Origin: Escherichia coli
GTDB taxonomy: Bacteria > Pseudomonadota > Gammaproteobacteria > Enterobacterales > Enterobacteriaceae
Length of the DNA stretch: 64,000 nt
Assembly (NCBI RefSeq): GCF_030384885.1
Contig: NZ_CP128613.1
Reading direction: 5' to 3' (one strand)
The notes under the pieces are model-generated. The model saw only the letters and a program-made list of their open reading frames with translations, had not been told where the DNA came from and made no database searches. How positions within the stretch are numbered: position 1 is the first letter of the stretch; each line of letters begins with the position of its first letter. Below, piece by piece: positions 1,781 through 4,910 of this stretch. Position numbers and translations under genes: made by a program.

Positions 1781-1812
1781 TTTGTACACCGTCCGGCACT
1801 CAATCGCCAAAA

Positions 1813-2040
1813 AGAAAAAAGCCAGCAGATAATCACTGCTGGCGTGGCGATTAACACCAATACTCAGTCACACATGATGTCCGCAAATCAGTAGTCAGAA
1901 TGACTCCCCTCCCACTGCATCAGCTCTTCAAGCATGGTTAATCGTTGTGGGACGCTTAACCAACGCAACCAGCACAACGTCGCTGTCGCGGTAAAATAGT
2001 GCTGATAAAACTGACGCATGGGGCACCTCCTTGCTTCATC
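1813..2040 (-). ncRNA. sgrS: SgrS small RNA (glucose-phosphate stress), ends approximate
   Basis: Minus strand reads GATGAAGCAAGG…CCCCATGCGTCAG (sgrS 5' end and sgrT start), the conserved GAGUAUUGGUGU seed, and a terminal hairpin GCCAGCAG-N7-CUGCUGGC followed by a U-run; divergent from sgrR. Confidence 0.85.
1888..2019 (-). CDS. sgrT: SgrT, 43-aa peptide encoded within sgrS
   Basis: MRQFYQHYFTATATLCWLRWLSVPQRLTMLEELMQWEGSHSDY; the ORF-track entry 1888..2187 is over-extended upstream of this ATG. Confidence 0.8.
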   Translation of the reverse strand: MRQFYQHYFTATATLCWLRWLSVPQRLTMLEELMQWEGSHSDY

Positions 2041-2107
2041 GTTAGGAATTATTGACTTAATATAGGGAAAATAAAATTGCTGACTTTTGCGCAGGAGTTC
2101 CCCTTTT

Positions 2108-3763
2108 ATGCCATCCGCTCGTCTGCAACAACAGTTCATCCGCCTGTGGCAATGCTGCGAGGGTAAATCGCAGGACACGACGCTCAACGAACTGGCAGCG
2201 TTATTGAGCTGCTCGCGTCGTCATATGCGCACCCTGCTCAACACCATGCAGGATCGCGGCTGGCTGACGTGGGAAGCGGAAGTCGGGCGCGGTAAACGCT
2301 CTCGTCTGACATTCTTCTACACCGGGCTGGCGCTTCAGCAACAGCGAGCAGAGGACCTGCTGGAGCAGGATCGTATCGATCAACTGGTGCAACTGGTTGG
2401 CGACAAAGCGGCTGTGCGGCAAATGTTGGTTTCTCATCTGGGGCGTACCTTCCGCCAGGGGCGGCACATCCTGCGCGTTCTCTACTATCGTCCGTTGCGC
2501 AATCTGCTGCCCGGCAGTGCATTGCGCCGTTCCGAAACCCATATCGCCCGGCAAATCTTCAGTTCGCTAACGCGCATAAATGAGGAAAATGGGGAACTGG
2601 AAGCAGACATCGCCCACCACTGGCAGCAAATATCACCGCTTCACTGGCGCTTCTTTTTGCGTCCAGGAGTCCATTTTCACCATGGTCGTGAACTGGAAAT
2701 GGACGATGTGATCGCCTCTTTAAAACGAATCAATACGCTTCCGCTCTATTCACATATTGCGGACATTGTGTCGCCGACGCCCTGGACGCTGGATATCCAT
2801 CTCACGCAACCGGACCGCTGGTTACCGTTACTGCTGGGGCAAGTTCCGGCGATGATCCTGCCACGAGAATGGGAAACCCTCAGTAACTTTGCCAGCCATC
2901 CCATCGGCACCGGTCCGTATGCGGTGATCCGCAACAGCACCAATCAACTGAAAATTCAGGCATTCGATGACTTCTTCGGTTACCGGGCATTAATCGACGA
3001 AGTTAACGTCTGGGTTCTGCCGGAAATTGCCGACGAGCCAGCCGGCGGTCTGATGCTAAAAGGTCCACAGGGCGAGGAAAAAGAGATTGAAAGTCGGCTG
3101 GAGGAAGGTTGCTACTATTTACTGTTCGACAGCCGCACCCACCGTGGGGCGAATCAGCAAGTCAGGGACTGGGTAAGTTATGTGCTTTCTCCAACTAATC
3201 TGGTCTATTTCGCCGAGGAACAATACCAGCAACTCTGGTTTCCGGCTTATGGACTGCTCCCCCGCTGGCATCATGCCCACCCGGCGCAGTGCGAAAAACC
3301 TGCCGGGCTGGAAAGCCTCACCCTGACCTTTTATCAGGATCATATTGAGCATCGGGTGATTGCCAGGATCATGCAGCAGATTCTGGCAAGTCATCAGGTC
3401 ACACTTGAAATTAAAGAGATCAGCTATGATCAGTGGCACGAAGGAGAGATCGAGAGCGATATCTGGCTTAACAGCGCCAACTTTACGCTGCCGCTGGATT
3501 TTTCGCTGTTCGCGCACTTGTGCGAGGTGCCGCTGCTCCAACACTGTATTCCGATCGACTGGCAAGCCGACGCCGCCCGCTGGCGCAATGGCGAAATGAA
3601 CCTGGCGAACTGGTGCCAGCAACTGGTCGCCAGCAAAGCAATGGTGCCGCTCATCCACCACTGGCTGATCATTCAGGGGCAACGCAGTATGCGCGGCCTG
3701 CGCATGAACACTCTCGGCTGGTTCGATTTTAAATCCGCGTGGTTTGCGCCACCGGATCCATGA
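2108..3763 (+). CDS. sgrR: Transcriptional regulator SgrR
   Basis: Protein from [17 protein letters not shown]… recognised as SgrR; ATG at 2108 with AGGAG RBS at 2093-2097; the track start at 2087 is a TTG extension. Confidence 0.93.
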
Positions 3764-3794: not shown

Positions 3795-3900
3795 CGCCGT
3801 TCTCAACGGGGTGCCACGCAGACGCGTGCGCTGAGAAAATACCCGTCGAACCTGATCCGGATAACGCCGGCGAAGGGATTTGAGGCTCCTTCTCAAGTCC
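3795..3900 (+). promoter_or_regulatory. TPP riboswitch (thi box) in the thiBPQ leader
   Basis: GGGGTGCC…CTGAGAAAATACCCGTCGAACCTGATCCGGATAACGCCGGCGAAGGGA fits the thi-box consensus directly upstream of thiB. Confidence 0.85.
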
Positions 3901-3926: not shown

Positions 3927-4910
3927 GTGTTAAAAAAATATCTTCCCCTGCTGTTGCTCTGTACAGCACCCGCTTTCGCTAAACCCGTTCTGACTGTTTA
4001 TACCTACGATTCCTTCGCCGCCGACTGGGGGCCAGGTCCGGTGGTGAAAAAAGCCTTTGAAGCCGACTGTAATTGCGAACTGAAACTGGTGGCGCTGGAA
4101 GATGGCGTTTCGCTTCTCAACCGTCTACGGATGGAAGGCAAAAACAGCAAAGCCGATGTGGTGCTGGGGCTGGATAACAATCTGTTAGATGCCGCCAGCA
4201 AAACCGGGCTGTTTGCTAAAAGCGGTGTGGCAGCAGATGCGGTAAATGTACCCGGCGGCTGGAATAATGACACTTTCGTCCCGTTTGATTACGGTTATTT
4301 CGCCTTCGTCTATGACAAGAACAAACTGAAAAATCCGCCGCAAAGCCTGAAAGAGCTGGTTGAAAGCGATCAGAACTGGCGAGTGATTTATCAGGATCCA
4401 CGTACCAGTACGCCGGGCCTGGGCCTGTTGTTGTGGATGCAAAAAGTCTATGGCGATGACGCCCCACAAGCCTGGCAGAAACTGGCGAAGAAAACGGTCA
4501 CGGTCACCAAAGGCTGGAGCGAAGCCTACGGCCTGTTCTTAAAAGGCGAAAGCGATCTGGTACTGAGTTACACCACCTCTCCGGCTTATCACATTCTCGA
4601 AGAGAAGAAAGATAACTACGCCGCCGCGAACTTCAGCGAAGGTCACTATTTGCAAGTGGAAGTCGCCGCCCGCACCGCTGCCAGCAAACAGCCGGAGCTG
4701 GCGCAAAAATTCCTCCAGTTTATGGTTTCTCCGGCTTTTCAGAATGCGATCCCAACCGGCAACTGGATGTATCCGGTGGCAAACGTCACGCTGCCTGCCG
4801 GTTTTGAAAAATTGACCAAACCGGCAACCACGCTGGAGTTCACGCCAGCCGAGGTGGCGGCACAACGTCAGGCATGGATTAGCGAATGGCAACGCGCCGT
4901 CAGCCGTTAA
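3927..4910 (+). CDS. thiB: Thiamine ABC transporter periplasmic binding protein
   Basis: Recognised as ThiB/TbpA with signal peptide (LLLLCTAPAFA); probable GTG start at 3927 with GAGG RBS at 3917-3920; track start 3915 is TTG. Confidence 0.92.
   Translation: MLKKYLPLLLLCTAPAFAKPVLTVYTYDSFAADWGPGPVVKKAFEADCNCELKLVALEDGVSLLNRLRMEGKNSKADVVLGLDNNLLDAASKTGLFAKSGVAADAVNVPGGWNNDTFVPFDYGYFAFVYDKNKLKNPPQSLKELVESDQNWRVIYQDPRTSTPGLGLLLWMQKVYGDDAPQAWQKLAKKTVTVTKGWSEAYGLFLKGESDLVLSYTTSPAYHILEEKKDNYAAANFSEGHYLQVEVAARTAASKQPELAQKFLQFMVSPAFQNAIPTGNWMYPVANVTLPAGFEKLTKPATTLEFTPAEVAAQRQAWISEWQRAVSR

Follow-up and report, generated by a model that had tools for sequence, protein, structure and literature searches.

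A setA-less leuD-sgrS junction in a divergent Escherichia coli strain and the probable polarity of the two sgrS alleles

The stretch of Escherichia coli DNA that we analysed (64 kb, hereafter the window) comes from a strain without the MFS sugar-efflux gene setA between leuD and sgrS and carries the short allele of a presence/absence polymorphism already known at this site. With a probability of roughly 0.9, we believe that this allele arose by one early deletion in Escherichia and that the setA cassette of K-12 was most likely recombined in. According to this reading, setA would have stood immediately downstream of sgrS in the ancestor of the Enterobacteriaceae, and a single deletion of ~1.25 kb early in Escherichia would have removed it, leaving leuD and sgrS convergent and 28-33 nt apart. 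Several species of Escherichia would then have inherited the short allele, as would most E. coli outside A/B1, including the deep-branching strain 2013C-4282. The K-12-like E. coli would possess another segment of ~1.4 kb, in which the final ~25 nt of leuD and a spacer are followed by setA, an alternative 3' end of sgrS and a different C-terminus of sgrT; this segment most likely entered by recombination through the conserved flanks.

Part of this picture is already known, namely the setA polymorphism, as a gain in A/B1, and the existence of two SgrS alleles. González-Alba et al. 2019 (PMC6896753) count SetA as one of the functions that the A/B1 sublineage of E. coli has acquired, and the SgrS of K-12 was reported to be 99% identical to that of A/B1 strains and only 88% identical to that of CFT073/O157:H7 (Horler & Vanderpool 2009, PMC2760817). 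The latter work also reported a start-codon change in the sgrT of O157:H7, and its synteny figure, according to the legend, marks setA where the gene is present; judging from that legend, CFT073 and O157 are drawn without setA (Figure 2). The expression of setA in K-12 depends on transcription that passes the sgrS terminator, and this readthrough drops under stress (Morita et al. 2015, PMC4509938); for the K-12 sgrS-setA operon itself, Sun & Vanderpool 2011 is the source cited in PMC4021124 and PMC4509938. The present analysis adds the polarity at the level of the family, a single deletion junction shared across Escherichia species and the exact breakpoints of the cassette.

The window starts inside leuC, and the features of the locus are arranged as follows.

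1175-1780, + strand: leuD, 3-isopropylmalate dehydratase small subunit (ORF list and RefSeq annotation of the identical genome)
1756-1912: allele-specific block (private substitutions, sgrS alignment and per-segment identities)
1781-1808: spacer TTTGTACACCGTCCGGCACTCAATCGCC, 28 nt, from the leuD stop to the SgrS U-tract (junction alignments)
1809-1843, - strand: SgrS intrinsic terminator (terminator scan, folds and Rfam structure line)
1814-2040, - strand: sgrS, the dual-function small RNA SgrS (Rfam RF00534)
1854-1879, - strand: SgrS seed core, 26 nt (alignments and folds)
1888-2019, - strand: sgrT, 43 aa, glucose uptake inhibitor (ORF list, annotation and SgrT variants)
2041-2107: divergent sgrS/sgrR promoter region, 97% identical to K-12
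2108-3763, + strand: sgrR, transcriptional activator of sgrS (ORF list and annotation)
3797-3896: TPP riboswitch upstream of thiB, as expected (Rfam RF00059, 66 bits)

The annotated thiBPQ genes follow sgrR and the riboswitch. The leuD gene stops with TAG at 1778-1780, its protein ending in ...FMR, and the interval from there to sgrR (1781-2107, 327 bp) is too short for a setA of 1.18 kb. A first reading made from the sequence only had given the same gap, with coordinates that agree exactly, and had placed the leuD stop ~30 bp from the sgrS terminator, which is a fair description: leuD and sgrS are convergent across a gap of 28-33 nt, and there are 28 nt from the stop to the end of the U-tract and 40 nt to the base of the hairpin.

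The SgrR-SgrS-SgrT module is complete at the sequence level. The Rfam model RF00534 matched the window along its entire length (positions 1-232 of 232 against 2040-1814 on the - strand) with 228 bits and E=5.8e-65, compared to a gathering score of 37. The 5' end of sgrS lies 67 nt from sgrR, and the two are transcribed divergently. The sgrT frame embedded in sgrS has an intact ATG start, is annotated as SgrT and matches relatives in Pfam PF15894. Its C-terminus, ...QWEGSHSDY, is the type that accompanies the setA-less allele, the K-12 type being ...QWDDRNSES. The 26 nt of the seed core are the same as in the experimentally studied SgrS of K-12 and are unpaired in the predicted fold, with different flanking sequence; ptsG, with whose mRNA the 3' region of SgrS would pair, lies outside the window. 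The terminator hairpin (1843-1821 on the - strand) has 8 bp, six of them G-C, in the form GCCAGCAG-UGAUUAU-CUGCUGGC, and is followed by U6-C-U5 at 1820-1809, such that the longest consecutive U run at the 3' end of SgrS is 6 here and 8 in K-12. In the predicted folds, both alleles have the same 3' architecture of an unpaired seed, a small hairpin, the 8-bp terminator and a U-tract. The opinion of the sequence-only reading that seed and terminator are intact is thus borne out, and the slight departure from K-12 that it had remarked at the 3' end of sgrS corresponds to the allele-specific block, which tracks the presence or absence of setA.

The terminator hairpin of sgrS is flanked by an inverted repeat, AATCGCCA (1802-1809) and TGGCGATT (1845-1852), through which a longer composite stem is possible on either strand; the repeat is kept in E. 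albertii with one wobble change. We considered the hairpin as a bidirectional terminator that also serves leuD and dropped the idea, as there is no T-tract behind the hairpin on the + strand and the terminator scan found no + strand terminator after leuD. Because a canonical + strand terminator is missing there, transcripts of the leu operon may run antisense into sgrS. Conversely, readthrough of the sgrS terminator in this strain would yield an RNA antisense to leuD, not a setA mRNA. The SgrR-SgrS-SgrT module is probably functional here; the SgrR regulon would simply be short of the efflux arm provided by SetA, and the glucose-phosphate stress response would operate without it.

We assigned the loss of setA at the level of the family by scanning bacterial genomes, one for each species, for the conserved SgrS seed and mapping LeuD, SetA, SgrR and ThiB in each locus. 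In all 36 of the 36 informative loci from Enterobacteriaceae other than Escherichia, setA was found directly downstream of sgrS. Informative loci were those that extended past sgrS; three more ended too early, and the eight hits from beyond the family had arisen by chance. The genera represented were Citrobacter, Salmonella (arizonae, diarizonae), Klebsiella, Raoultella, Enterobacter, Siccibacter, Pluralibacter and Superficieibacter. Such a uniform arrangement indicates that an sgrS-adjacent setA is ancestral in the family and that the short junction is a deletion. One sequence found in the search with SgrT (P0140) proved to be of the Citrobacter amalonaticus type, with setA.

The short junction was also present in E. 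albertii, E. whittamii, Escherichia sp. E1V33, SCPM-O-B-8794 and CP055649, the last being a divergent genome with an sgrR ~91% identical to that of E. coli. In the short allele, leuD ends with ...ATGCGTTAG and is followed by a spacer of ~30 nt ending in ...CAATCGCC and then by the sgrS terminator. The junction of the window aligns base for base with those of O157:H7 and all five of these lineages, and this homology across the setA-less Escherichia points to a single deletion event. Between any two setA-less alleles, sgrS is 93-99.6% identical, also when they come from different species. The leuD end ...FMR is shared by the window, Salmonella and Citrobacter, and K-12 ends with ...FMN-TAA; since FMR is common to the outgroups, it is the ancestral form and FMN the derived one. 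The spacer is the scar of the deletion, at the place that setA occupies in other genera, and we found in it no significant remnant or repeat that would point to a mechanism. Local alignments of the 33-nt spacer against 15 setA-bearing intervals never beat those of shuffled spacers (p at least 0.14), and although several of the best alignments fell at codons close to the setA stop, none was significant.

In K-12, setA sits in a cassette of ~1.4 kb with sharp breakpoints of divergence, one within the final 25 nt of leuD and the other at the C-terminus of SgrT. When segments were compared one by one, K-12 was 96-98% identical to O157 and CFT073 in leuC, the 5' part of leuD, the 5' part of sgrS, the promoter region and the 5' part of sgrR. 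It was an outlier only within 1756-1912, which covers the last ~25 nt of leuD, ~100 nt at the 3' end of sgrS and the last codons of sgrT; the substitutions private to K-12 at the leuD end fall at 1756-1779. Over the whole of sgrS, the K-12 type was 84-88% identical to every setA-less allele. The genome of Escherichia sp. MOD1-EC7003 has an sgrR only ~92% identical to that of K-12, but its sgrS is 98.7% identical and its SetA 99% over the available part (positions 1-450 of the extracted locus). This K-12-type sgrS and SetA on a divergent background shows directly that the cassette has moved between lineages by recombination.

Where the cassette came from is less evident, and our confidence in a donor origin is lower than that in the polarity discussed below. 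The setA of K-12 is 72-80% identical to the setA genes of the outgroups, and the sgrR of K-12 falls in the same range; as the two genes are equally distant, none of the sampled genera is a plausible recent donor. Comparison of the identities of setA, sgrR, leuD and thiB likewise made no donor genus stand out. Among the matches listed in a search for SetA homologs, there were near-identical E. coli entries and no intermediate relative or donor. One 94% SetA match (P0001) was considered as a divergent relative and was set aside as a K-12 allele with a small internal duplication. The equal distances of setA and sgrR would be equally compatible with a long persistence of both alleles inside Escherichia.

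Within Escherichia, the most parsimonious polarity has the short allele as the ancestral state of both crown Escherichia and E. coli, with a secondary gain of the setA cassette in A/B1. We consider this probable, with the qualification that it is parsimony over a limited set of lineages that does not include the type genomes of E. fergusonii, E. marmotae and E. ruysiae. That the K-12 (A/B1) state is derived is suggested by the sharp breakpoints of the cassette, by the uniformity of setA (at least 99% identical to K-12 in 3228 genomes) and by the published gain in A/B1 (PMC6896753). The opposite polarity, in which setA descended vertically in A/B1 from the ancestor of the genus and the short allele spread horizontally, would make the K-12 state ancestral within E. 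coli. It draws on the cassette demonstrably moving between lineages, as in MOD1-EC7003, on a K-12 setA whose distance to the outgroups equals that of sgrR, which was inherited vertically, and on the resemblance to Salmonella of the K-12 terminator together with the 11 nt that precede it. However, it requires many independent replacements across species, whereas the short alleles are consistent with the species that carry them, in the terminator loop (ATAATCA in E. coli, GTATTCA in all non-coli) and in the variants of the spacer, and so fit vertical descent. The short allele also retains the ancestral end of leuD and a Citrobacter-like 3' region of sgrS, and the published reconstruction places the gain of setA in A/B1 (PMC6896753). 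We therefore regard an ancestral K-12 state as unlikely.

If the short allele is ancestral in E. coli, the sgrS-setA operon of K-12 may be a secondary restoration. Escherichia would have lost setA once, and A/B1 and, separately, the MOD1-EC7003 lineage would have regained it at the exact ancestral position by allelic replacement of ~1.4 kb from a donor that has not been sampled and whose age is close to that of Escherichia, with the terminator/Hfq-binding module of SgrS and the C-terminus of SgrT swapped together. We offer this scenario tentatively and give it a little less than an even chance. Were it true, two co-adapted SgrS/SgrT alleles would segregate with the presence or absence of setA, and one possibility is that the terminator is leakier where setA needs readthrough and tighter where readthrough would be antisense to leuD.

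The absence of setA extends beyond the junction. Neither the SetA protein (tblastn) nor the setA DNA (blastn) of K-12 had a match in the whole 64-kb window. An 8-kb stretch matched the E. coli 2013C-4282 chromosome (NZ_CP027579.1; human stool, USA) with 100% identity, and a chimeric query, composed of a window-specific segment of kefC and the setA of K-12, matched this chromosome at megablast sensitivity in one place only, the kefC segment. The sequence-only reading had declared setA missing, given the K-12 order as leuD-setA-sgrS and proposed to look for the gene elsewhere; it was right in the first two respects, the K-12-type genomes having a setA of 1179 bp at this position, and the look elsewhere disclosed no second site on NZ_CP027579.1 at that sensitivity. 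That setA was relocated in the genome and not lost has in its favour only that the window spans no more than 64 kb. Against it stand the single match of the chimeric query and the counts in the complete E. coli genomes, where setA (3239) and the direct junction (2159) add up to 5398 of 5426, as fits mutually exclusive states. We consider a relocation very improbable. Plasmid-borne setA was seen in only three copies in the whole genome collection.

These counts describe a clean two-allele polymorphism, in which ~40% of the complete genomes have the uninterrupted leuD-sgrS-sgrR stretch and nearly all copies of setA are of the K-12 type. The carriers of the short junction include CFT073, O157:H7, O55:H7 and APEC O2:K1. 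The setA-less junction is an ordinary and already published variant of E. coli. The sequence-only reading had spoken of a lineage-specific loss, of which the loss holds with respect to the other Enterobacteriaceae and the lineage specificity does not, given its occurrence in 2159 of the 5426 E. coli and in other Escherichia. A recent deletion restricted to this strain or to its closest lineage might be thought of because the strain is an outlier, other complete E. coli being at most 98.1-98.6% identical to it over the tested segments; the identical junction in those 2159 genomes and in five other Escherichia lineages refutes such a deletion. An assembly artefact in which setA was collapsed or skipped can be dismissed, since thousands of genomes that were finished independently have this junction and the sequence continues across it without irregularity, the flanking genes being intact and SgrS complete.

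The strain itself is clearly separated from most sequenced E. coli. Apart from 2013C-4282, all of the complete E. coli genomes were at most 98.1% identical over the 8-kb stretch, and leuC, leuD, sgrR and thiB were only 94-97% identical to K-12, CFT073 and O157:H7. With these low identities, the window represents a deep-branching and poorly sampled lineage of E. coli, possibly a cryptic-clade-like one. Elsewhere in the window, an accessory insert between rluA and djlA (19759-20700) carries espY1, which encodes a T3SS effector, and a transposase fragment with a frameshift, in a gene order that is otherwise K-12-like. Between apaH and folA (28797-29528), there are a fragment of the ccdB toxin gene and a gene of the 'plasmid pRiA4b ORF-3 family'. 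The gene that follows rpsT (59561-61033) is annotated as a type III effector, and after it, within 59561-64000, comes a fimbrial operon in which frameshifts have made pseudogenes of the chaperone and usher genes.

For the study of SgrS, the distribution of the alleles means that the K-12 sgrS-setA operon cannot stand for the entire species. Some 40% of the complete genomes, including the UPEC strain CFT073 and O157:H7, have a glucose-phosphate stress response without SetA, and they also have a different 3' end of SgrS and a different C-terminus of SgrT. Conclusions drawn in K-12 on terminator readthrough and on the function of SetA are therefore not transferable untested to setA-less strains. 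Otherwise, the locus is well studied and its variation in gene content is of an ordinary kind, and we attach little weight to it as a discovery.

Among the known systems, the leuD-sgrS-sgrR loci of CFT073 and O157:H7 have the same setA-less junction, terminator and spacer as the window, with sgrS 98.7-99.6% identical to it, whereas their flanking genes are only 94-97% identical to those of the window. CFT073 has an IS200C inserted in the leuD-sgrS spacer, adjoining the U-tract of sgrS (2025-2483 of the extracted CFT073 locus). In O157:H7, the start codon of sgrT has changed from ATG to ATT, whereas the window keeps ATG, and the T3SS effector gene espY2 lies just downstream of sgrR (Z887; 4096-4100 of the extracted locus).

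The sgrR-sgrS-setA-leuD loci of Salmonella, Citrobacter, Klebsiella and Enterobacter have in common with the window the gene order of leuD and convergent sgrS, followed by sgrR and thiB. The C-terminus ...FMR of leuD is alike in the window and in Salmonella/Citrobacter, and the 3' region of sgrS in the window is Citrobacter-like. However, these genera keep setA, sometimes with further genes, between sgrS and leuD, where the window has no setA.

The sgrS-setA operon of K-12 matches the window in sgrR, the promoter region, the 5' part of sgrS with most of sgrT, and the seed core. It differs in ~100 nt at the 3' end of sgrS, including the loop of the terminator, whose closing pair is G-C in the window and G-U in K-12 and whose U-tract is U6CU5 in the window and U8 in K-12. 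The C-terminus of SgrT and the last two codons of leuD differ as well. In K-12, setA lies directly downstream of the sgrS terminator, whereas in the window that place is taken by the end of leuD, 28-33 nt away.
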